Assembly (NCBI GenBank): GCA_022825895.1
Contig: JAJDVX010000015.1
Coordinates: 45,121 to 109,120, forward strand
DNA: 64,000 bases
Source of the DNA: Chloroflexota bacterium
Lineage (GTDB): Bacteria; Chloroflexota; UBA11872
Reading direction: 5' to 3'
In this document: positions 7,396 through 45,253 of the stretch, piece after piece
Layout of the letters: every line of letters starts with the position of its first letter
Position numbering within the stretch: the stretch's first letter is position 1
Notes under the pieces: generated by a model
What the model was told of the DNA's origin: nothing
Databases searched by the model: none
The model's input: the letters and a program-made list of their open reading frames with translations, nothing else
Translations under genes and position numbers: made by a program

Positions 7396-7469
7396 GCGGA
7401 AGTGGCTCAGTGGTAGAGCATCTCCTTGCCAAGGAGAGGGTCACGGGTTCGAATCCCGTCTTCCGCTCC
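7396..7469 (+). tRNA. tRNA-Gly (anticodon GCC)
   Basis: GCGGAAGTGGCTCAGTGGTAGAGCATCTCCTTGCCAAGGAGAGGGTCACGGGTTCGAATCCCGTCTTCCGCTCC. Cloverleaf with anticodon loop TTGCCAA, T-loop GGTTCGAATCC. Confidence 0.9.
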
Positions 7470-7479
7470 TGAACCAGCC

Positions 7480-8154
7480 ATGTGCGCACGGTACAACTTG
7501 CACTCAAGCCCGCAGGCTCTGGCCGAGTACTTTGACGTGGCCGCAGAGGACCTCCCGCGCACGCTTCCGCTTCCCAATTTCAACGTCGCGCCCACGCAGC
7601 AGGCACCCGTGGTGCTTGACGGACCGCGACGTTTCGAGGTCATGCGTTGGGGGCTGATTCCGTTCTGGGCCAAGAGTGACCGAATCGGACGTCGAACAAT
7701 CAACGCCCGGGGTGAAACCGTGGCTGAGAAACCAACCTTCCGCGCCGCGTTTCGCAAGCGCCGGTGCCTGGTGCCGGCGGATGGGTTCTATGAGTGGACC
7801 GGGCCCCGCGGAAAACGCCAGCCCCTGAACATCCACCGAACCGACGGGCAGCCCTTGGCGCTTGCGGGCCTCTGGGAATCTCATGACGAGTTTGGGCCGA
7901 CGTTCACAATCATCACCACATCACCCAGCGAATATATGTCCGCAATCCACAGCCGCATGCCCGTAGTGCTCGAGCAAAGTAATTGGGACGCCTGGTTGTC
8001 CACCGACGATGAGGACCCGGGCTGGCGCGCCGCACTTCTCAAGCCCGCCGGAGATGACGTTCTGTCTGGCTACCCGGTCAATCCCGCCGTCAACTCGGTC
8101 GCGAACAACGGACCTGAACTCATTCAAGCCACGGAGTCCAAGCGCCTGATCTAG
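7480..8154 (+). CDS. SOS response-associated peptidase (SRAP/YedK/HMCES family, abasic-site processing)
   Basis: ORF track start 7426 lies inside the tRNA; in-frame ATG at 7480 gives N-terminal MCARY (catalytic Cys2). Conserved GLIPFWAK and CLVPADGFYEW motifs. Confidence 0.85.
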   Translation: MCARYNLHSSPQALAEYFDVAAEDLPRTLPLPNFNVAPTQQAPVVLDGPRRFEVMRWGLIPFWAKSDRIGRRTINARGETVAEKPTFRAAFRKRRCLVPADGFYEWTGPRGKRQPLNIHRTDGQPLALAGLWESHDEFGPTFTIITTSPSEYMSAIHSRMPVVLEQSNWDAWLSTDDEDPGWRAALLKPAGDDVLSGYPVNPAVNSVANNGPELIQATESKRLI

Positions 8155-9249: not shown

Positions 9250-9732
9250 CTAGCCCGCGCCGCCCGCGTCGCCCGGCTGGGCGATGGTGACGACCCACTC
9301 GCCTTCGGCGCGTTCGACGTTCACTGCGTACCTGCCAGCCCTGGTTACCTGGGCGGAGGCCCCGCCCTCGCGACTGAGCGGCGGGATGATGCTGACCGGC
9401 GCGATGGGTTCGGCGTTGGGATCGTCCAGGGACTGAAGGGAGACGCTGAAGGGTTCGACGGTCCCGTCGTAGACGGCCTGCACGATGACCAGACCTTCAC
9501 GCAGGCCGAAGGCTTCGGTTTGACCCGGGCGCAGGCCGTCAAACGAGATAGGGCGGTCAATGGGGGTGACGGTTGGCGCCGGAGTCGATGGGGGCGTCGT
9601 GGAGTCGTCGGCGAGCAGTGCGCCGAGCACGGACGAGCGTTGCGCCGGAACCACGCCCACCACCTTGAGCGCCACAACGACGGCCAGCGCCAGCAGCACA
9701 ATGCCAAGCAGATATGAATGCACTCGCAGCAT
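9250..9732 (-). CDS. hypothetical membrane-anchored/secreted protein
   Basis: Long low-complexity N-terminus in ORF track rejected. ATG at 9730-9732 gives MLRVHSYLLGIVLLALAVVVALKVV (signal-anchor), then a ~130 aa Pro/Thr-rich linker plus domain. Confidence 0.45.
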   Translation of the reverse strand: MLRVHSYLLGIVLLALAVVVALKVVGVVPAQRSSVLGALLADDSTTPPSTPAPTVTPIDRPISFDGLRPGQTEAFGLREGLVIVQAVYDGTVEPFSVSLQSLDDPNAEPIAPVSIIPPLSREGGASAQVTRAGRYAVNVERAEGEWVVTIAQPGDAGGAG

Positions 9733-9889
9733 GGTCCGAGCGTGCGACGCCGAAGCGACGTCCGTCAACGGTCTAACGGACCGCACGCGGGCGGCCACCG
9801 GGGCATGACGAACGAGCAGCGGGTCGGGATTCGTCAGTGTTCGCCCGGCGCTGCCACAATCGGATGACACTCGCAGCGGGAGGGACGCG

Positions 9890-11665
9890 GTGCGGTACGT
9901 AGCCGTCCTGGCCCGTCGCGAAGTCCTGTTTGGGGCGTTGGCCGGGTTGCTGGCCGGGGTCGTGTTCGCGCTGGCGATGCAGGCCGAGCAGATGCGCGTG
10001 GAGGTGACCGGGCTGGCCGGGGTGTCGACCTCCGGCGCCGGGCTGGTTGTGCACCTGGTGCTTGCAACGCTGATCGGCGCTGTCGTTGGCATGCAGTACC
10101 GGCACGAGCCCGGGAGCTATGCGGCGCAGATCACGCTGGGCGTCACGTTCGGGCTGCTGGGCTGGATCCTGGGGCCGCTGACGTTTCGACCGCTGGCGGA
10201 AGGGCAGATTCCCGACTGGTCCATCGCCGTGGCGTCGGCCGGGTTTCCCAGCCTGATGGGACACATGCTCTACGGGGCGCTGACCATCGGGGGCCTGTAC
10301 TGGGCCGTGGACCGGTGGGGCGGCGGCGCCGTGCTGGCGCGTCCGAGCGAACGCGCGGCGGATCGCGTGCATCGGATCGTGGTGCTGGGCGGCGGGTTCG
10401 GCGGGATGAGCGCGGCGCAGACGCTGGAGCGGATAACGCGAAAGCGGCGCGACCTGGACGTCACGCTGGTGAGCCAGAGCAATTTCCTGCTGTTTACGCC
10501 GATGCTGGCCGAGGTGGCGTCCAGCGCGCTGGAAGCGCAGCACATCGCGGCGCCGATTCGCGCGGCCTGCCCGTTCACCAACTTCATTCACGGCGACGTC
10601 GAACGGATCGACCGCGAGCAGCGGCAGGTGCTGGTGCATGGGCGGCGCTCGGCGGAGCCGCAGGCGGTGCCCTACGACCACCTGGTGCTGGCGATGGGAT
10701 CGGTGCCGAACTTCTACGGCCTGCCGGGCCTGGCCGAGCACGCGATCACGCTGAAGACACTGGAAGACGCGGTGGGCCTGCGGCACCGGGTGCTGTCGCA
10801 GTTGGAGCGCGCCGACCATGAGACGGACGTGGAGGTTCGACAGCGGCTGCTGACGTTTGTCGTCGCGGGCGGCGGGTTTGCGGGCGCGGAGACGATCGCC
10901 GAACTGTTCGACCTGGTGTCGAGCGTTCGCCGCTACTACCAGCATCTGCGACCGGGTGACGCGCGGTTTGTGCTGGTGCATTCGCGCGACCGCATCCTGC
11001 CGGAACTTAGCGCGGAACTGGGCGCGTACGCGCTGGAGAAGCTAAGCGCGCGGGGGATCGAGTTTCGGCTGGGGCGCCGGGTCGCGGCGGCGGCCGAAGG
11101 GTCGGTGACGCTGGACGACGACACGGAGATCGCCTGCGAGACGTTCGTCTGGACGGCGGGGAACCAGCCGAATCCGCTGCTGGGAACCATGGACTGCGAG
11201 ACGAGCCGGTCCGGCCAGATCGTGGTGGACGCCACGCTAGGGGTGCAGGACAGGCCGGGGCTGTGGGCCGTGGGCGACGGGGCGCAGATTCCGGATCTCA
11301 CCAACGAGGGCCGGCCCTGTCCGCCGACAGCCCAGCACGCGCTGCGCCAGGGTAAGCGGGTGGCCCTGAACATCCTGGCGACGATCGACGGCCGGACGCT
11401 GAAGCCGTTCCGATACCGGGCGACCGGCTCACTGGTGGGGCTCGGGCACCGTACGGCGGCCGCGGAAATCTGGGGTCGCAAGTTCTCGGGGCTGCTGGCC
11501 TGGTTCATGTGGCGAACGATCTACCTCAGCAAGCTGCCGGGCCTGGAACGCAAGTCGCGCGTGGCGCTGGACTGGGCGCTGGACCTGGTGTTTCCACGCG
11601 ACATCGTGCTGACGACGGCGGCCGACGGCCGGTTCGGGTCCGACGACCCGGAGCGCGGGTCATGA
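9890..11665 (+). CDS. type II NADH:quinone oxidoreductase (NDH-2) with N-terminal ~140-aa 4-TM module
   Basis: GTG start. aa ~160-560: RIVVLGGGFGGMSAAQ, FVVAGGGFAGAE, WAVGD typical of NDH-2. aa 1-140 hydrophobic, with GPLT..PL, DWS, FP.LMGHMLYG motifs shared with the downstream gene. Confidence 0.85.
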   Translation: MRYVAVLARREVLFGALAGLLAGVVFALAMQAEQMRVEVTGLAGVSTSGAGLVVHLVLATLIGAVVGMQYRHEPGSYAAQITLGVTFGLLGWILGPLTFRPLAEGQIPDWSIAVASAGFPSLMGHMLYGALTIGGLYWAVDRWGGGAVLARPSERAADRVHRIVVLGGGFGGMSAAQTLERITRKRRDLDVTLVSQSNFLLFTPMLAEVASSALEAQHIAAPIRAACPFTNFIHGDVERIDREQRQVLVHGRRSAEPQAVPYDHLVLAMGSVPNFYGLPGLAEHAITLKTLEDAVGLRHRVLSQLERADHETDVEVRQRLLTFVVAGGGFAGAETIAELFDLVSSVRRYYQHLRPGDARFVLVHSRDRILPELSAELGAYALEKLSARGIEFRLGRRVAAAAEGSVTLDDDTEIACETFVWTAGNQPNPLLGTMDCETSRSGQIVVDATLGVQDRPGLWAVGDGAQIPDLTNEGRPCPPTAQHALRQGKRVALNILATIDGRTLKPFRYRATGSLVGLGHRTAAAEIWGRKFSGLLAWFMWRTIYLSKLPGLERKSRVALDWALDLVFPRDIVLTTAADGRFGSDDPERGS

Positions 11666-13206
11666 CGCGGCGAAGCGACCTGGCGGCGTGGCTGCTGGCC
11701 GGCGCGGTGGCCGGGCAGGTCGGCGGAGTGGTCTACGGCCTGGTGATGCGGCACCTGGGCGTCATCGAGTCCATTGCCGCGCTGGTCCGGCTGCCGCCGT
11801 CGGCGGTAGGCGGGTGGGTCGTGCACATGGTGGTGGCGGGAGTCATCGGCGCGGGTTTCGCGGCGCTGATTCGCCGCCAAGAGCACGGCGCGGGCGACCT
11901 GCTGTTCTGGGGTCTGATCTACGGGGCAGTGTGGTGGATCATCGGACCGCTGACGCTGGCGCCGCTGCTGATCCGCCGCGAGGCGCTGGCGTGGGACCTG
12001 ACCTCGGCGCAGGAGACCTTTCCGATGCTGCTGGGGCACCTGCAGTACGGCGTGACGACCAGCCTGGCCCTGCTGGTGTGGCGACGGTCAGCCTTTGAGC
12101 GGCCAACGGTTGGATGCGCGGTGCGAGGCGTCCTGGCGGGGGTGGTCGCCGCCGCGCTGACCGGCAAGGCGCTGGTTGACCAGGGGCTGCTTGGCCATTT
12201 CGTCGGAATCGGCGCTTACGATCCCTCCGGTGCCCTGTGGTTGGGAGTTCTTGCGACCGGCGCGTTGACCGGGATGGCGTTCGCGGCGGTGGTGCCCGCG
12301 GTGCGCGACAGCGCGGGCGCAGCGCTGGTGCGGGGGATGGTGTTTGGGTTCCTGGCCTGGATTCTTATTCCCATGACGGTCGTCGGCCTGGCAACCCGGG
12401 GCATGCTGCCCTGGGGCATGGGGTTTGCTCACGATGCCTTTCCGGGGCTGCTGGCCTACCTGCTTTTTGGCGGAATCCTGGGCTTGGCGTACCAGTGGCT
12501 GAGCGTGGCCTGGCGGGTCCTGTTCGACGAATCGACGACGGACGAGGACGAGGGCTACGGCACGGAGGGGCTGCGGGCGCTCGGTCGCGGATCGGCCGCT
12601 GGAATCGCGGGTGGTCTGCTGTACACCGTGATGCTGGCGCGGCTCGGCTCGTTCGAGGGCATCGCCCAGCTGATGCGGGCCGACAACGCAGCCGTCGGGG
12701 TGCTGGTGCACGCCGTTGTCTCCGTGATCTGGGGCGCGGTGTACGGCCTGCTGTTTCGGCGGCAGACGTATGGGATCGGGTCGGCGGTGGGCTGGGGCGT
12801 CGCGTTCGGGTTCTTTATCTGGGTGGTTGGACCGAACACCCTATTCGCCGTGCTGACGGGGCACACGCCGGACTGGTCGGCGGACAGCACGGCGCCGCGC
12901 ACGGCTTCGCTGGTCGGCCACCTGGTGTACGGGGCGGTCCTGGGCGTGGGATTCCACTACTTCGAGTCGCGGCACAACCCCTGGTGGCAGCCGCGCCGCG
13001 AGCGGCTGGAAGCTCGCGCGGATCAACGCCGCCGGCAGTTGCAGACGTCGGCGCCGGCGATCTGGGCGCTGGTGATGCTGGTTGCGCTCACGCTGCCGAT
13101 CGTCTTCGGCGGGTCCGACGAGATGGGACGCAACGCCATGAGGGCGGAGTCCACGTCGAGCGAGGAGCGTGGGCCGCCGATGGACGACATGCAGCCGATG
13201 CGGTGA
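11662..13206 (+). CDS. polytopic membrane protein built from ~3 tandem copies of the NDH-2 N-terminal TM module
   Basis: ATG at 11662 overlaps the NDH-2 stop (ATGA). Repeats at aa ~8-130, ~140-255 and ~300-450, each carrying VVH..V..IGA, W.IGP.T, DW, FP.LLGHL.YG-like motifs. Confidence 0.7.
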   Translation: MTRRSDLAAWLLAGAVAGQVGGVVYGLVMRHLGVIESIAALVRLPPSAVGGWVVHMVVAGVIGAGFAALIRRQEHGAGDLLFWGLIYGAVWWIIGPLTLAPLLIRREALAWDLTSAQETFPMLLGHLQYGVTTSLALLVWRRSAFERPTVGCAVRGVLAGVVAAALTGKALVDQGLLGHFVGIGAYDPSGALWLGVLATGALTGMAFAAVVPAVRDSAGAALVRGMVFGFLAWILIPMTVVGLATRGMLPWGMGFAHDAFPGLLAYLLFGGILGLAYQWLSVAWRVLFDESTTDEDEGYGTEGLRALGRGSAAGIAGGLLYTVMLARLGSFEGIAQLMRADNAAVGVLVHAVVSVIWGAVYGLLFRRQTYGIGSAVGWGVAFGFFIWVVGPNTLFAVLTGHTPDWSADSTAPRTASLVGHLVYGAVLGVGFHYFESRHNPWWQPRRERLEARADQRRRQLQTSAPAIWALVMLVALTLPIVFGGSDEMGRNAMRAESTSSEERGPPMDDMQPMR

Positions 13207-13273: not shown

Positions 13274-13942
13274 CTATGGTCGTCCGGCGCGCGTGTAGTT
13301 CGTCGGGTCGCGCACGGTCTTGTAGTCCTCGAAGTCCAGCCAATGGCACCAGACTCTCCTGGGAGCTTCCACATGAAGCCGTCGATTGCTGGTTGGGCTT
13401 CTCCAGGCCGCCAGCTCAACGCGAGGGCCAGGGTTGGTACGCAAGGCGACCCACTCGAGAGCCGGACGAAGATCGGTATCGGTGGAAACGACAATGGCAA
13501 TGTCGAAATATCGACTGAATGCGTGCGTCACCAGATCAACCGCCAACTGGACATCGATGCCCTTTTCCTGCGGTTTGGAGGCTGGGAAGTCAGGGGGATA
13601 TCGCAAAGGCCGCCACGCGACGTGGACTCCCGCCGACTCCCACGCAGCGCATTGGCTCATGTGTGCTCCGTAGTTCTTCGGGTGCTTGGTAGCGTCAGGC
13701 CTTCCCGTGTACATACGAACCTGCTTTAGCTCCCGTTGGTAGCCAGCCGGGGACCGCTCAACTAGCAACTCGCCCATCGCGAGCGGGTCGAACTGGCCGG
13801 AGGTAAAGAACGCTCCAACTGGATGAAACGCGTCGCGAGCACCCATACGCGTGTTTTCCGCGTCGATATACACGACGACCCGGTTGGGCAATGGTCTCAG
13901 CCAAACAAAAAATAGCCCCGCCAGTTCATCGCCCGGAGGCAA
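13274..13942 (-). CDS. NYN (LabA-like, PIN-related) domain protein
   Basis: VVVYIDAENT, IDVQLAVDLV, IVVSTDTDL acidic motifs of NYN domain. GC ~58%, below flanks. Confidence 0.75.
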   Translation of the reverse strand: MPPGDELAGLFFVWLRPLPNRVVVYIDAENTRMGARDAFHPVGAFFTSGQFDPLAMGELLVERSPAGYQRELKQVRMYTGRPDATKHPKNYGAHMSQCAAWESAGVHVAWRPLRYPPDFPASKPQEKGIDVQLAVDLVTHAFSRYFDIAIVVSTDTDLRPALEWVALRTNPGPRVELAAWRSPTSNRRLHVEAPRRVWCHWLDFEDYKTVRDPTNYTRAGRP

Positions 13943-16193: not shown

Positions 16194-16266
16194 TGGGGTA
16201 TCGTCTAGTGGTAGGACGCGCGGCTCTGGACCGTGAAGCGGTGGTTCGAATCCATCTACCCCAGCC
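16194..16266 (+). tRNA. tRNA-Gln (anticodon CTG)
   Basis: TGGGGTATCGTCTAGTGGTAGGACGCGCGGCTCTGGACCGTGAAGCGGTGGTTCGAATCCATCTACCCCAGCC. Anticodon loop CTCTGGA; resembles bacterial tRNA-Gln. Confidence 0.9.
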
Positions 16267-38942: not shown

Positions 38943-39421
38943 TGCGACGTCTCCTGCGGTTCCTGCCGGCACTGACTCTGCTGGCGGCCACGGCAACGCC
39001 CGTCCTGGCCCACGGCGGCGACCTCGTCTACACCGGCGCCACCGGTCCCTACCAGGTCCGCGCCTTCGCAAACTGGGCCGAAGGCTGGCTCGACTACTCC
39101 GTGGATCTCCGCAACGTCTCCACCGGTGCGCGCATCCCTGGCGCCGAAGTCAAGGTGACCGTCTTCGAGAATGGCGCCGAAATCGCCCAATACACCGCCT
39201 TCGAGTCCGGCGCCGTCTACGAGTTCGTCGAGCCGAGCCCCGAAGAAGTCCACTGGAATCTCGTACTGGACATCTCCGGCCCCCTCGGCCCCGCCAGACT
39301 CACCCACGCCCTTGACCTGGCGCCCACCAACTGGGTCCTGCCCAGCCTCCTGGTCGTCGGCGGCTTCTTCGCCGCCGTCGCCGCCCACACCTGGACCGCC
39401 CGCCGCCGCGCTCGCGCCTAG
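38942..39421 (+). CDS. hypothetical secreted protein with C-terminal TM anchor; mature N-terminus begins with His (CopC/YtkA-like?)
   Basis: In-frame ATG inside ORF 38669..39421, overlapping the upstream stop (TGATG). Signal MRRLLRFLPALTLLAATATPVLA|HGGD; TM anchor LPSLLVVGGFFAAVAAH. Confidence 0.45.
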   Translation: MRRLLRFLPALTLLAATATPVLAHGGDLVYTGATGPYQVRAFANWAEGWLDYSVDLRNVSTGARIPGAEVKVTVFENGAEIAQYTAFESGAVYEFVEPSPEEVHWNLVLDISGPLGPARLTHALDLAPTNWVLPSLLVVGGFFAAVAAHTWTARRRARA

Positions 39422-41694
39422 CTCCGCGCCGCCTCCGGCAACGTCTGGATGAAGTTGACGATGTGCCAGGTGTCCAGTTCGCCGTATCGCTCGCCGAACG
39501 CCGGCATCCCCGTTCCCTCGATCCCGTTGAACACAAACCCGAACAGCGCATCGTCCGGGTGCAGCGGCACGTGGATCACCAGGTCCAGCGGCGGCGGATC
39601 CAGCGTCGCCGCCAATGGACCGTCCCCGCGACCCGCCGGCCCATGACAGCTCACGCACTCGGCTTCATAAAGCTCCCTTCCGGCGCTGACCGAGACATCG
39701 TCCGGCGGTATCGGGTTCACCGCAGACACCGAGACGCCCTGCGGCGGTCCGATAATCAGCAGCCCTGCCCCCAGCAAGATGGCGGCAAAGCCCGCCCCGG
39801 TCCCCGCCTGCCGCACGCGCGTTGCCCATCCCTGGCGCGCCAGCGTCGCCAGCGCCAGCACAAAGCCCATCCCGGCCAGCGCCAACCCCCAGAACCGCAC
39901 CGCGACCGCCGCATCAACCTCCGCCACGCCAATCGCCGTCGGCGACCCGATGTTCAGCCGCACCGGAACTCTGGCGTCGAACGCCCCCGGCTGCCGCACG
40001 ATCGCCAGCACCTGCCACCGGCCCGCCAACGCAAAGGCATCCGTCTCCACCACGAATCTGCCGTCCTCGGTGCGAACCGGCCGCTCAACCGTCGTCCCCA
40101 GGTCGGTATCGAGATAGCGAAGCTGCAACTCCACATCCGCATCCCCGGCCCGTCCGCCGTCCGCCGTCACCACGTCAACTTCCAGCGTGTTCGGACCCGG
40201 CCGCCCCGGAACCACACGCACCCGCACTCTCGAATCGCCGCTGGCCCCCACGCCCTCCACCGCCAGCGGCACGTCCCCGCTGACCTGCCGCGCCGGCTCG
40301 CGCTCCGTCAGGAACCCGACAACCAGCAGCACACTCACGGCCAGCACGATCTCCGCGCCCACCAGCGTCCGCAGCGCCGTCTGCGCCCTCGGTCGCGCCA
40401 CACCCCCAGCCGCCAGCCTCGGCCGGGTCCACCCCAGGTTCGCGCCCCCCAGCGCCAGCAGCGGCGCCACCAGCGCCAGCTTGGCCACCAGCAAAACTCC
40501 GTACTCCGTGCTCCACAGCCGCGCCGGCTCGAGTACCTGTAACCACGCGCTATACGCCCCGGTCACCAGGATCAGGCCCACAGCCACTGTGGCAACCGCC
40601 GAGAAGCGCGCCGCAACCTCGGTGATCTCGGCGGCAACGGAGCCGTTGGGACGCGCCTGGCGCGACTCCCACGCCAGCAACAGCACTACCGGCAATCCGC
40701 CCACCCACGCCCCCACCGCCAGCAGGTGAATCAGGTCGGCCGCCAGCGCCGGCCCAACCTCGCGCAGCGCCGCGGCGTGACTGCCCAGCGAAATCGTCAC
40801 CGCCATCACCACGGCCGCCAGCGCCACCCCGCCGAATGCAACCACGCCCCGCCGCTCGTCCGGCGACGACGAACTGGCCTGGTCGGCCAGCACCAGCGCC
40901 ACCGCGAGCGCCGCGGTCCGCGATTTCCACAAAACACCCCACTGCCCCGCCCCAAACACATCCCCGAACCCCGCCAGCAGCGAGTCGCCGCCCAACACCA
41001 GGATCTGCGTCCCCAGCAGTCCAACTTGCCCCGCCAGGGCCAGCAGCCCTCCGCCCAGCAACAGCAGCGCCGTCCGCCGTTCCACGACCCGACGCCGCTC
41101 AGGCAGGGATCCCCGCCGTTGCATCAGCACCTGCAGCGGCCCGCCGAACAGCACCGCCACGCCCACGAACAGCAACCAGCGCGAAATCGCCGCCGCCGGG
41201 CTCGACTCGATCGAAGCCACCGCCACCACCACGTCCGCCGCCACCGGCTCGCCCACCCCGAACGCAAACGACCCGCGGATCACATGACCGTCAATCACCG
41301 AGAGCGTCCGCCACACCACCACGTACGTGCCGTCCGCCAGGTCACCCACAGGAACCAGCATGGCCGCGTCACTCGTTGGGTCCGCCTCCGTCGGCCCCGT
41401 GGTCACCGGCTGACCGTCGGCGTCCAGCACCTCCAGGTTGCTGTAATCCGGATCGATGGCCTCGCTGAACTCCGCGTACACCACCAGCGGCGCCGGATCC
41501 ACCGCCGTCCCCGGGCTCGGCGACGCCCGCACCAGGTTCGCGTGCGCCCCGGACGGCGCCGCCACCAGCGCCAGCGCCGTCAACGCGGCTAGAAACGCCA
41601 GGGCCAGGCGCCCGCGGCGGAGCCCAGGCCCCCGCCACGGGCCGGGTTCCCTACCCGGCGCCACGCCGACGGAACGCATAGAACGCAAGGCCAA
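39418..41694 (-). CDS. CopC-CopD fusion copper resistance/uptake protein with C-terminal mono-heme cytochrome c domain
   Basis: Signal, then CopC domain (HANLVRASPSPGTAV...GTYVVVWRTLSVIDGHVIRGSFAFGV), ~8 TM CopD domain, YtkA-like periplasmic domain, C-terminal CVSCHG (CxxCH) cytochrome c. Exact start uncertain (41694 or 41679). Confidence 0.8.
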   Translation of the reverse strand: MALRSMRSVGVAPGREPGPWRGPGLRRGRLALAFLAALTALALVAAPSGAHANLVRASPSPGTAVDPAPLVVYAEFSEAIDPDYSNLEVLDADGQPVTTGPTEADPTSDAAMLVPVGDLADGTYVVVWRTLSVIDGHVIRGSFAFGVGEPVAADVVVAVASIESSPAAAISRWLLFVGVAVLFGGPLQVLMQRRGSLPERRRVVERRTALLLLGGGLLALAGQVGLLGTQILVLGGDSLLAGFGDVFGAGQWGVLWKSRTAALAVALVLADQASSSSPDERRGVVAFGGVALAAVVMAVTISLGSHAAALREVGPALAADLIHLLAVGAWVGGLPVVLLLAWESRQARPNGSVAAEITEVAARFSAVATVAVGLILVTGAYSAWLQVLEPARLWSTEYGVLLVAKLALVAPLLALGGANLGWTRPRLAAGGVARPRAQTALRTLVGAEIVLAVSVLLVVGFLTEREPARQVSGDVPLAVEGVGASGDSRVRVRVVPGRPGPNTLEVDVVTADGGRAGDADVELQLRYLDTDLGTTVERPVRTEDGRFVVETDAFALAGRWQVLAIVRQPGAFDARVPVRLNIGSPTAIGVAEVDAAVAVRFWGLALAGMGFVLALATLARQGWATRVRQAGTGAGFAAILLGAGLLIIGPPQGVSVSAVNPIPPDDVSVSAGRELYEAECVSCHGPAGRGDGPLAATLDPPPLDLVIHVPLHPDDALFGFVFNGIEGTGMPAFGERYGELDTWHIVNFIQTLPEAARS

Positions 41695-43084
41695 CGCCAG
41701 TCACAAGTCCCAGTCCGCCAATCACCAGCCCGGCCACCGCAATCGTCAGGGCCGTCGCCGAAGCGTCCGACGCCTCCCGCGCCTGCTGCTGCGCCGCCGT
41801 GGCCACCCCCGCGATCTCGCGCGCGCTCGGCACCGGCCGCGGGAACTGCGCCACCGTGGCCGACCGCACGTCGTCGAACGTCCCGGGACCCGAAGTAAAT
41901 GTCTCGTCAACCGGCAGCCCGTCGATCGTGCCCACAAACCGGAACCGGTACGGCCCAGGCGCCGTCGGGATGAACGGCGCCACGTAGCCTCCGTCCTCGC
42001 CGCGCAGCGGCGTCAGCGCCATCTGCCGGGCGATGCCCGACGCCGACATGTCCGCCGCCAGGTGCGTCACCTCCACCACCAGGCTGTTCGCCAGGCCGTT
42101 GATGCCAACTTGCGCCTGCTGGCCGGCGTCCATCTGCATGCCGCCGGACCCACCGCCGTCCGGGATGTGAATCGTCTCTAACGCCTCGATTGTCTCGCCG
42201 CCATACGCGTACTCCTCGTGCATGTTGGTATTCAGCGTCACCCGCACTTCGTTCATGCCCGGCGCCAGCTTGCCCAGGTGCAGGTACGGACTGTAGATCC
42301 GCCCCAGCCGCACCCCATTCACGTAGAGGTGCGGATGCCCTTCGCCCGCCACGTTCGGAGCATTCACCTTCGCCGGGGCAAGCGTGAATCCCTGCGGCGT
42401 CACCTTCAGGTTCGCCCCGCCCAGCGGATCCGGCTCCAGGCTGATCGCGACTCTCATCCCGGCGGGCGCCTCCACGTGGCCAACCTCTTCCGGCGCCGGC
42501 GGCATCGCCGGAACGTTGATCGTGGTCGCCGCCTGCACCGGCTGCCCGTCCACCACGTATTCGCTGTGGCCATTCGTCTGCAGTGTCACCCGGATCTCAC
42601 GGTCCCCGGGTGCAACGCCCTTCAGGTGGAACCACTCGCCGTAGGCTCGGCCCACCTTCTCGCCGTCCACGTAAACGTGCGCGTGCCCCTCGCCGTGCAC
42701 GTCCGCCTGATTCACCCGCTCCGGCGCGAACACAAAGCCGGTGGGGATGATGTGCACGTTGATTCCATCGATCGGATCGACCTCCGCCGTCACCTCCACT
42801 GCCATCCCCGACGTCTCCACCGTTCCACCGTGCTCGTGACCGCCGTCCGCGGCCTGGCCCGAACCCTGGTGATCGTCGCCCGCCCGCGTCACCGACAGGT
42901 ACACCCCATTCGGCTGCCCCTCATACGCCGGCTCCACCAGGAACCCGACGTCAAAGGTGAAGCCATGAACCTCACGTCCCTCGTGCGCCCACACCACGCT
43001 CGCCGCAGCCACTAGCCCGACCGCGGCAAGCGCCAACGCCGGCAGGCTGTGCCTCAAGCGCGGCCGGCGATTCCAGACTCGCAT
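41651..43084 (-). CDS. secreted His-rich protein with internal tandem-duplicated ~90-aa domain and C-terminal TM anchor (putative copper-binding)
   Basis: Start re-picked to MRVWNRRPRL (ATG 43082-43084, GAGG RBS). Repeats DPIDGINVHIIPTGFVFAPERVNQADVHGEGHAHVYVDG... and DPLGGANLKVTPQGFTLAPAKVNAPNVAGEGHPHLYVNG... Confidence 0.55.
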   Translation of the reverse strand: MRVWNRRPRLRHSLPALALAAVGLVAAASVVWAHEGREVHGFTFDVGFLVEPAYEGQPNGVYLSVTRAGDDHQGSGQAADGGHEHGGTVETSGMAVEVTAEVDPIDGINVHIIPTGFVFAPERVNQADVHGEGHAHVYVDGEKVGRAYGEWFHLKGVAPGDREIRVTLQTNGHSEYVVDGQPVQAATTINVPAMPPAPEEVGHVEAPAGMRVAISLEPDPLGGANLKVTPQGFTLAPAKVNAPNVAGEGHPHLYVNGVRLGRIYSPYLHLGKLAPGMNEVRVTLNTNMHEEYAYGGETIEALETIHIPDGGGSGGMQMDAGQQAQVGINGLANSLVVEVTHLAADMSASGIARQMALTPLRGEDGGYVAPFIPTAPGPYRFRFVGTIDGLPVDETFTSGPGTFDDVRSATVAQFPRPVPSAREIAGVATAAQQQAREASDASATALTIAVAGLVIGGLGLVTGVGLAFYAFRRRGAG

Positions 43085-43185
43085 CAACAAACCTCGCAGT
43101 TTCGGCGCATCCCCGCACGACACTTCTCGTCCCTACGGGATTCGCCCATTTGGTCCGCGCACCTGCGTGCGCGGCTGGGAGCCAT

Positions 43186-44590: not shown

Positions 44591-45253
44591 CTAGTAGTAG
44601 GCCCTCGTCTTATTCTTAAAGACATCAATCTGACTGAGCACGGCCGGACTAACCAGATCAAAGAATCCTGACTTTCCTCGCTCATACTTGCGAAATACTG
44701 CCCAGCATATGTAGTCGGCTACTTGAAGACCGTAGTGAGCACGGGAATCGTGATGCACGATGTGGTACCGCAGACGATTGGGAATTCTCCTGGACAGTGT
44801 GTGCCGCACCGACTTCTCGAGTGCTTCCCGCCGTCTCCGGTAAGGGACAGTATCGGTAATAACGATTACTTCTTTGGCCTCGGACTTCGACTCTCTCAAG
44901 ACTACGCGTCGGAGCAGGGAACCGAGCATCTCCGCGTAGAACCTCCCGTCAGGTGTCAGAGAAGGTTCGGTTTTGCGTTTCTCTACAATCAACGCATCAA
45001 TACTGAAGTGATCAAGGTGGGATCCGATGATGTCAAAGACCCTGCCACGAACATGTCGGTTGTCATGAGCGCAGTGGAAGTACTCGGTCGCTAGGCCATA
45101 CTCCAGGCAGTCGTACTTATACGCATCCAGCGCCTCATACATCCGAAACGGCCGCTCCATGCTCACGCTCGTCAGCACGAAATAGCGAGTCCCGCGCGCG
45201 CTGAAATCAAGGTTCCCCGACTCGTCCAGGAATATGTACACGCAGTCGCTCAC
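44591..45253 (-). CDS. DUF3800 family protein
   Basis: GTG start at 45251-45253 (ORF track extends to 45358). CVYIFLDESGN N-terminus and GLQVADYICWAV C-terminal motif typical of DUF3800. GC ~52%. Confidence 0.65.
   Translation of the reverse strand: MSDCVYIFLDESGNLDFSARGTRYFVLTSVSMERPFRMYEALDAYKYDCLEYGLATEYFHCAHDNRHVRGRVFDIIGSHLDHFSIDALIVEKRKTEPSLTPDGRFYAEMLGSLLRRVVLRESKSEAKEVIVITDTVPYRRRREALEKSVRHTLSRRIPNRLRYHIVHHDSRAHYGLQVADYICWAVFRKYERGKSGFFDLVSPAVLSQIDVFKNKTRAYY

Follow-up and report, generated by a model that had tools for sequence, protein, structure and literature searches.

A type II NADH dehydrogenase fused to a four-helix membrane module and encoded beside a partner containing three copies of that module

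The window analysed here, a 64,000-nucleotide stretch (positions 45,121–109,120, forward strand) of contig JAJDVX010000015.1 from the Chloroflexota bacterium assembly GCA_022825895.1, encodes two overlapping genes, called here A and B. Gene A encodes a type II NAD(P)H:quinone oxidoreductase (NDH-2) with an N-terminal membrane module, and gene B a membrane protein built from three copies of the same module. The genome records closest to the genes of the window are Chloroflexota metagenome bins (96% protein identity). Public databases label A as ‘NAD(P)/FAD-dependent oxidoreductase’ or ‘NADH dehydrogenase’, and B as ‘hypothetical protein’ or ‘YagU’. Gene A and its elements are the following.

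9878..9885 (+): Shine–Dalgarno-like GGGAGGGA (GGGAGGG), six bases before the GTG start of gene A; read from the sequence
9890..11665 (+): gene A, membrane module fused to a type II NAD(P)H:quinone oxidoreductase, 591 residues; open reading frame, Pfam, PDB sequence search and structural model
9890..10324 (+): A_N, four-helix DUF1440/DUF6789-like module, residues 1–145; homology to the modules B1, B2 and B3 of gene B
10052..10054 (+): codon of His55, second membrane helix, predicted outer-leaflet side, first of a polar pair; conservation
10262..10264 (+): codon of His125, fourth membrane helix, GH..YG motif, second of the polar pair; conservation
10325..10369 (+): variable linker between module and NDH-2 domain, residues 146–160; predicted local distance difference test score (pLDDT) below 50 at residues 147–156, columns poorly conserved
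10370..11602 (+): NDH-2 catalytic part, residues 161–571; Pfam, PDB search, conservation and Foldseek
10973..10993 (+): LVHSRDR, residues 362–368, with His364, which aligns with the D of ‘LLD’ in the mycobacterial structure 9mqy
11327..11353 (+): TAQHALRQG, residues 480–488, the family version of the quinone motif AQxAxQ; conservation

Gene A encodes a genuine NDH-2 preceded by a membrane module of about 145 residues and four helices. Pfam assigns residues 162–488 to Pyr_redox_2 (PF07992; E value of 2.8e-49), which covers two Rossmann domains, and residues 513–571 to NDH2_C (PF22366; 34.7 bits against a cut-off of 27.7), which contains the C-terminal amphipathic membrane helices. Two GxGxxG sites, one for flavin adenine dinucleotide (FAD; residues 166–172) and one for NAD(P)H (residues 327–332), are strictly preserved, G167, G169, G172, G327, G329 and G332 being invariant in the 75 A homologs on which residue counts for this protein rest (85 homologs for B). 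A sequence search of the PDB identifies mycobacterial NDH-2 (9mqy; E value of 2.9e-54) as the nearest solved relative, after which come the enzymes of C. thermarum, B. subtilis (YjlD), S. aureus and yeast. The AlphaFold model of A (pLDDT of 83, predicted template modelling (TM) score, pTM, of 0.73) reaches target TM values of 0.85–0.94 to NDH-2 structures; among the Foldseek matches are 9mqz (E value of 3.5e-35, target TM value of 0.85) and the C. thermarum and S. aureus enzymes (TM values of 0.89–0.90). By homology, electrons would pass from NAD(P)H to FAD and on to menaquinone at the ordinary NDH-2 site.

Both substrate sites carry signatures of their own when compared with canonical enzymes. 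The acidic residue that ends the second strand of the NADH domain and recognises the ribose of NADH in canonical enzymes, a mark of NADH preference, is absent from A, where His364 (conserved in 74 of the 75 family members) aligns with the mycobacterial Asp and is followed by Arg368 (71/75). The replacement of the acidic residue by His364, together with Arg368, suggests that the enzyme may use NADPH or have dual nucleotide specificity, without bearing on its membership of the fold family. The quinone motif takes the form T-A-Q-H-A-L-R-(E/Q)-G, the first five positions of which fit AQxAxQ, whereas the last Q is an Arg in 73 of the 75 members (R486); T480, A481, Q482, H483, A484 and G488 are invariant.

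The N-terminal region of A contains four predicted helices (residues 10–32, 49–69, 77–103 and 119–145 in the AlphaFold model), and Pfam finds no match in residues 1–155. The length of 591 residues agrees with that of the homologs P0127–P0134. Taken alone, the module is modelled with lower confidence (block-mean pLDDT of 61–93), which, together with the low-confidence linker, fits the absence of a partner from a model of A only.

Gene B begins inside the last codons of gene A, and its elements are the following.

11662..11665 (+): ATGA, the start of gene B overlapping the stop of gene A, putative translational coupling; sequence
11662..13206 (+): gene B, three-module membrane partner, 514 residues, 13 predicted membrane helices; open reading frame and AlphaFold
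11662..12081 (+): B1 module, residues 1–140, with His55 and His126; hhalign, alignment and AlphaFold
12082..12537 (+): B2 module, residues 141–292, degenerate, both His lost, invariant Arg224; conservation
12538..12981 (+): acidic linker D/E-EG-x-G-T-x-GLR and B3 module, residues 293–440, with His350 and His420; region of the Pfam DUF6789 and DUF1440 matches
12964..13107 (+): E435-x-R-xx-P-W-W segment, amphipathic helix (residues 445–460) and final membrane helix (residues 464–482); conservation and AlphaFold

The AlphaFold model of B (pLDDT of 89.6, pTM of 0.88) is a single compact domain in which three repeats span residues 2–140, 150–288 and 299–437. Each repeat consists of a long, a short, two long, a short and a long helix in succession, and beyond the last repeat lie an amphipathic helix and the thirteenth helix of the membrane part. 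More than 264 B homologs have a length of 450–540 residues, and in the B homologs Arg224, which lies near the cytoplasmic end of the third helix of B2, E435, W441 and W442 are invariant. No solved fold was matched when the B model was compared with the PDB by Foldseek, which returned only helical-hairpin and transporter noise; a PDB sequence-profile search with the B family gave no match at E≤10, and NCBIfam holds no informative model for B.

The homology of the four modules is supported by three comparisons of the segments A 1–148 and B 1–140, 141–292 and 293–445. Pairwise blastp with composition-based statistics gives E values from 2e-6 to 1e-19, and Smith–Waterman z values for all six module pairs are 8.3–25.5 over 300 shuffles of the same composition, which excludes an artefact of shared hydrophobic composition. 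Profiles built from four sub-alignments of 75–85 homologs each are aligned by hhalign over 128–140 columns with probabilities of 99.6–100% and E values of 5e-25 to 3e-41. These results support an origin of B by duplication of one module unit, as the sequence-only reading had proposed. That reading had also correctly placed the open reading frames and the ATGA overlap at 11662, and had recognized that the NDH-2, an identity that Pfam and the fold now confirm, carries a hydrophobic N-terminal module, seen here as four predicted helices at residues 10–145. Its count of about three module copies in the downstream gene is borne out by all three comparisons; its approximate repeat boundaries (residues 8–130, 140–255 and 300–450) are roughly right when set against the model, and the motifs that it had singled out (VVH, W.IGPLT..PL, DWS and GH..YG) are conserved columns of the four-way alignment.

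The modules share a number of features beyond their helical layout. A GxxxG-type motif occurs in every helix and is extended to GxxxGxxxG in the first. Segments rich in Arg precede the first helix, separate the second from the third and follow the fourth; the positive-inside rule would then place each module with its two ends in the cytoplasm, a topology that would suit a cytoplasmic NDH-2 domain. The most conspicuous shared element is the pair of His residues of A_N, B1 and B3, located about 7 residues into the second helix and about 6 into the fourth, in the predicted outer leaflet, and adjoining invariant Trp, Tyr and Pro residues. The complete pair is found in 60 of 75 A_N, 55 of 85 B1 and 75 of 85 B3 modules and in none of the 85 B2 modules. 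It is replaced by D/N/Q/E/Y/F/L in 12–35% of orthologous modules: the second-helix His by D/N/Q/E in 11 of 75 A modules and by Q or N in 10 of 85 B3 modules, and the fourth-helix His by Y, F or Q in some modules. B2 lacks the two residues at once, as do five B1 sequences (L/L). The mostly polar character of the substitutions (D/N/Q/E and Y) would agree less well with strict heme ligation than with hydrogen bonding or the handling of protons.

Relatives of B were sought in one genome per species, which gave 340, and the best 79 loci were examined; 76 of them have DNA upstream of B and form the basis of the linkage, fusion and overlap counts. All 76 carry an NDH-2 homolog (49–98% identical) upstream of B, which ends at or just before B in every locus bar L062. 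The N-terminal module is in frame with the NDH-2 in 72 of the 76, and the four others lie at a contig end (two) or have a broken reading frame (two). A 4-nucleotide NTGA stop/start overlap is possible in 62 of the 76. Only in L062 is the pair apart, by 1.35 kb: an IS3-type element with two minus-strand transposase open reading frames (L062:3630-4983) sits exactly between the two genes, and the 3′ end of B is out of frame. The 79 loci belong to Chloroflexota (including Dehalococcoidia), Actinomycetota, Armatimonadota, Bipolaricaulota/Acetothermia, Deinococcota (Trueperaceae), Bacillota, Calditrichota (Calditrichaceae) and bins labelled Thermotogae, and at least eight phyla carry the pair. Actinomycetota contribute five cultured type strains, Kibdelosporangium aridum DSM 43828, Thermocatellispora tengchongensis DSM 45615, Actinomadura scrupuli KCTC 19488, Planotetraspora silvatica NBRC 100141 and Allosalinactinospora lopnorensis CA15-2. 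The best 120 database homologs of A are all 546–675 residues long with 88–100% query coverage, and identity within the fused NDH-2 clade is 54–62% across phyla, compared with about 30% to solved NDH-2s.

Linkage and fusion are therefore conserved in essentially all 76 loci and across phyla, which supports A and B as a dedicated pair, the role of dedicated partner being the one that the sequence-only reading had given to B. The two findings on which that reading had said it could fail, an insignificant repeat alignment in profile–profile comparison and an absent extension with an unlinked neighbour in related genomes, are the opposite of what hhalign and the 76-locus survey return.

These data also dispose of the explanation that the adjacency is incidental, with B unrelated to the enzyme and the extension of A produced by a mis-called start or an assembly artefact. 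In its favour, the A fragments P0121–P0124 are short and resemble separate genes. These apparent stand-alone module proteins of 180–230 residues, retrieved with the N terminus of A, are however frameshifted fragments of error-prone assemblies, their tails matching an alternative frame of the window (10315–10821), and being frameshifted they provide no evidence against the fusion. Orthologs of 591 residues are intact, and chance adjacency and annotation artefact are excluded by the linkage, fusion and overlap across phyla together with these intact orthologs; we regard this explanation as extremely improbable. The shorter relatives with one or two modules, P0126 and P0251, are contig-end fragments.

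The genes flanking the pair vary in the 79 loci, and no third gene family is common to them beyond single clades. One neighbour alone recurs, a gene with a DM13 domain that lies about 19 nucleotides before the NDH-2 gene, on the same strand, in 12 loci (L023, L026, L027, L029–L032, L038, L046, L052, L063 and L065). Its product is membrane-anchored and ends in the Pfam domain ‘Electron transfer DM13’ (E value of 1.4e-13; for example L026:1847-3049), and its hosts are Chloroflexota/Dehalococcoidia and one Armatimonadetes bin. This suggests that in these lineages the DM13 gene forms a three-gene operon with A and B. The DM13 gene is absent from the window and from most loci. In the window, the divergently transcribed gene at 9250–9711 (−) encodes a protein of about 153 residues that matches no Pfam model and has a membrane anchor at its N terminus and a linker rich in Pro and Thr; the gene is kept in position in 17 loci that are all close Chloroflexota relatives of the window; considered as a hidden DM13 homolog, it proved not to be similar to DM13.

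From the sequence, the module had not been recognised as a named family, and a resemblance to DUF1206 had been offered as a guess. DUF1206 matches no module and neither whole protein even at E≤10, whereas the module belongs to Pfam DUF6789 and DUF1440/YagU. In the window, residues 309–439 of B score 27.7 bits with DUF6789, a borderline value against a cut-off of 27.1, and DUF1440 scores 19.4 bits, below its cut-off of 34.7. Among the 85 B orthologs, however, DUF1440 is matched at E≤1e-3 by 75 (best E value of 1.7e-14) and DUF6789 by 18. No Pfam model is matched by A_N, B1 or B2 alone, which are tied to B3 by hhalign. Many B homologs carry the Joint Genome Institute label ‘YagU involved in acid resistance’. 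With 491 representatives (E≤1e-3) after clustering at 50%, the family of the module is a small one, in which the B-type and A-type architectures dominate. A four-helix membrane unit is common to the module, YagU/DUF1440 and DUF6789, and a second-helix His and a fourth-helix GH motif are visible by eye in YagU. YagU and DUF6789 proteins are however single modules of about 150–200 residues, whereas A and B together have four modules, distributed as one plus three over two genes and joined to a flavoenzyme. A search of the literature on DUF1440, DUF6789 and YagU found no mechanistic work. In E. coli K-12 (NC_000913.3, 297770-303605; L084), yagU is divergent to paoABCD, which encode a periplasmic aldehyde oxidoreductase; this adjacency may be a sign that members of the superfamily cooperate with redox enzymes, and no literature tying yagU to paoABCD was found.

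From these features we infer how the two proteins may assemble and in what stoichiometry and topology. With moderate confidence, we propose that A and B form an obligate complex of about 1:1, in which the module of A completes a four-module bundle and the NDH-2 is embedded in a 17-helix membrane domain. Translational coupling of the two genes would presumably yield the proteins in a ratio of about 1:1. A flexible linker of about 15 residues would tether the NDH-2 to its four-helix module; this module most likely packs alongside B1, B2 and B3, and the resulting bundle would hold the flavoprotein on the cytoplasmic face, with Arg224 and the E435-x-R-xx-PWW segment of B probably docking the NDH-2 domain. 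The outer-leaflet polar pairs may handle the quinone/quinol headgroup or relay protons. Because an NDH-2 has membrane helices of its own, and because the bundle is large and highly conserved, the bundle would be expected to add a function at the outer-leaflet polar sites; it is probably more than a passive anchor, and its function is most plausibly quinone/quinol or proton handling at those sites. B may act as the membrane anchor or quinone-channel partner that the sequence-only reading suggested; the outer-face His pair and the invariant motifs on the cytoplasmic side hint at a role beyond that of a passive anchor.

Several points weigh against this complex and its proposed role. Contact between A and B is something that we infer, and an anchor would be redundant beside the C-terminal membrane helices of NDH-2, which argues that the membrane domain does something else. 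E. coli YagU compared with the module profiles by hmmsearch and hhalign shows no significant similarity (probability ≤1.4%). Experimental work found on the wider superfamily amounts to one result, which is silent on quinones: external acid strongly induces E. coli yagU, and the gene has a part in acid resistance (PMC2270276).

The same membrane domain could instead be an electron conduit, its His pairs ligating a redox cofactor (a metal or heme b) close to the outer side, so that electrons would pass from NAD(P)H through FAD and quinone to an extracytoplasmic acceptor in a manner similar to NOX/MsrQ or to Listeria Ndh2. Within the four-helix bundle, helices two and four carry the His residues and helices one and three are Gly-rich (GxxxGxxxG and GxxxG), which is the layout of b-type cytochrome bundles, and both His disappear together in B2 and in the five B1 sequences; the ‘Electron transfer DM13’ gene directly upstream in 12 loci and the divergent arrangement of yagU and the periplasmic oxidoreductase genes paoABCD point in the same direction. 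The His residues are however not strict, variants such as D/N/Q/E and Y/F/Q being unusual for axial heme ligands, and each module has one pair, on the outer side only, with no inner-side cofactor site that would bridge from FAD. The limited distribution of the DM13 gene and the aerobic life of most host lineages also count against a conduit, and no structural similarity to solved cytochrome b subunits was found. We consider a conduit of this kind unlikely.

A transport function appears quite improbable. The bundle would in that case serve as a channel or transporter and move protons, ions or a small solute, with the NDH-2 energising, gating or redox-regulating it, or it would make NADH oxidation electrogenic. 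Channels are commonly built as a pseudo-tetramer of four-helix units whose helices form glycine zippers, and the outer-leaflet His/Asp/Gln pair tolerates the very replacements that would be expected if it handled protons or ions. Induction of YagU by external acid (PMC2270276) would agree with such a role, and 17 membrane helices far exceed what anchoring needs. On the other hand, the membrane helices lack the conserved Lys/Glu/Asp chains of redox-driven pumps, their conserved residues being mostly Gly, Trp, Tyr, Pro and Thr; no solved transporter fold is matched, the Foldseek matches to CLC and MFS proteins having TM values of at most 0.17. We know of no precedent for NDH-2-coupled transport.

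Returning to the A–B complex, a bolder extension, which we think has only a slim chance of being right, would make it a class of membrane-spanning NAD(P)H dehydrogenase in which the His-pair sites bind a cofactor or quinol and NAD(P)H oxidation is coupled to transmembrane charge or electron transfer. Such coupling could take the form of a built-in redox loop or of electron export to partners like the DM13 protein. If true, it would give the YagU/DUF1440/DUF6789 superfamily its first molecular function.

Other features of the window lie outside the pair. Genes for tRNA-Gly(GCC) (7396–7469, +) and tRNA-Gln(CTG) (16194–16266, +) bracket a segment of about 9 kb that contains the cassette; an open reading frame for a SRAP peptidase (7426–8154) overlaps the former, so that its real start is probably further downstream. 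Between B and an FAA-hydrolase gene lies a gene with an NYN domain (13274–13942, −; Pfam E value of 3.1e-11), whose presence in just 7 of about 18 close relatives marks it as a variable insertion. Two genes at 39418–41694 (−) and 41651–43123 (−) have a guanine plus cytosine fraction of 0.69–0.72 and a strong negative GC skew. By eye, the 758-residue protein encoded there appears to combine a CopC-like domain with a CopD-like membrane domain of several helices and to carry the CxxCH motif of cytochrome c at its C terminus, and it adjoins a 490-residue His-rich exported protein; the region 39418–43123 is probably a copper-handling locus.

NDH-2 is the textbook case of a respiratory enzyme that is monotopic, non-pumping and made of a single subunit, and in mycobacteria and Plasmodium it is a drug target. 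A fused module and a 13-helix partner, present throughout a clade that extends over at least eight phyla, depart from this picture. B appears too large and too conserved for simple anchoring, and the enzyme may have an activity not recognised before, for example at a second quinone site, in relaying protons or electrons, or through a change in nucleotide use. The arrangement offers a biochemical handle on the uncharacterised YagU/DUF1440/DUF6789 families, and the presence of the cassette in cultured actinomycetes makes it directly testable.

The canonical NDH-2 is described as a single-subunit monotopic protein (PMC5220320, PMC13433803). With such enzymes A shares the two Rossmann domains, the two GxGxxG motifs, the NDH2_C helices, the overall fold and, over its first five positions (TAQHA), the quinone motif. 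Its four predicted spanning helices (residues 10–145) and its conserved 13-helix partner do not agree with that description; the pair differs from canonical enzymes in this fused module and partner and in having His364 for an acidic residue and an Arg for the last Q of AQxAxQ. In the literature on NDH-2 with membrane-spanning extensions, we found no description of a fused module combined with a partner, and the words transmembrane, fusion and DUF are absent from a 2025 preprint on NDH-2 evolution.

The nearest precedents for an NDH-2 with dedicated partners are the FLEET Ndh2 and B. subtilis Ndh/YjlC. In Listeria and Lactiplantibacillus, the FLEET Ndh2 is a specialised NDH-2 encoded beside small membrane proteins and serving a dedicated route, instead of the general chain, in ‘Terrabacteria’ lineages (PMC9888254). 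A resembles it as an NDH-2 beside a membrane protein in cell-wall-rich ‘Terrabacteria’, electron export by A being an analogy only. The FLEET partners EetA/B, PplA, DmkA/B and FmnA/B are unrelated to the DUF1440-type module, and the survey of 79 loci found no conserved pplA, eetA/B, dmkA/B or fmnA/B neighbours. The extension of the FLEET Ndh2 is C-terminal, whereas that of A is N-terminal. In B. subtilis, Ndh (YjlD) is encoded with YjlC, a helical membrane plug-in, and is described as an NDH-2 that relies on this accessory protein for access to the membrane or to quinone; YjlC is reported to form fibres or tubes with Ndh and to be specific to Bacillales (PMC13433803, PMC13524794). B and YjlC have no Pfam family in common, and B differs from YjlC in spanning the membrane with 13 helices and in consisting of repeats, a further copy of which is part of the enzyme.

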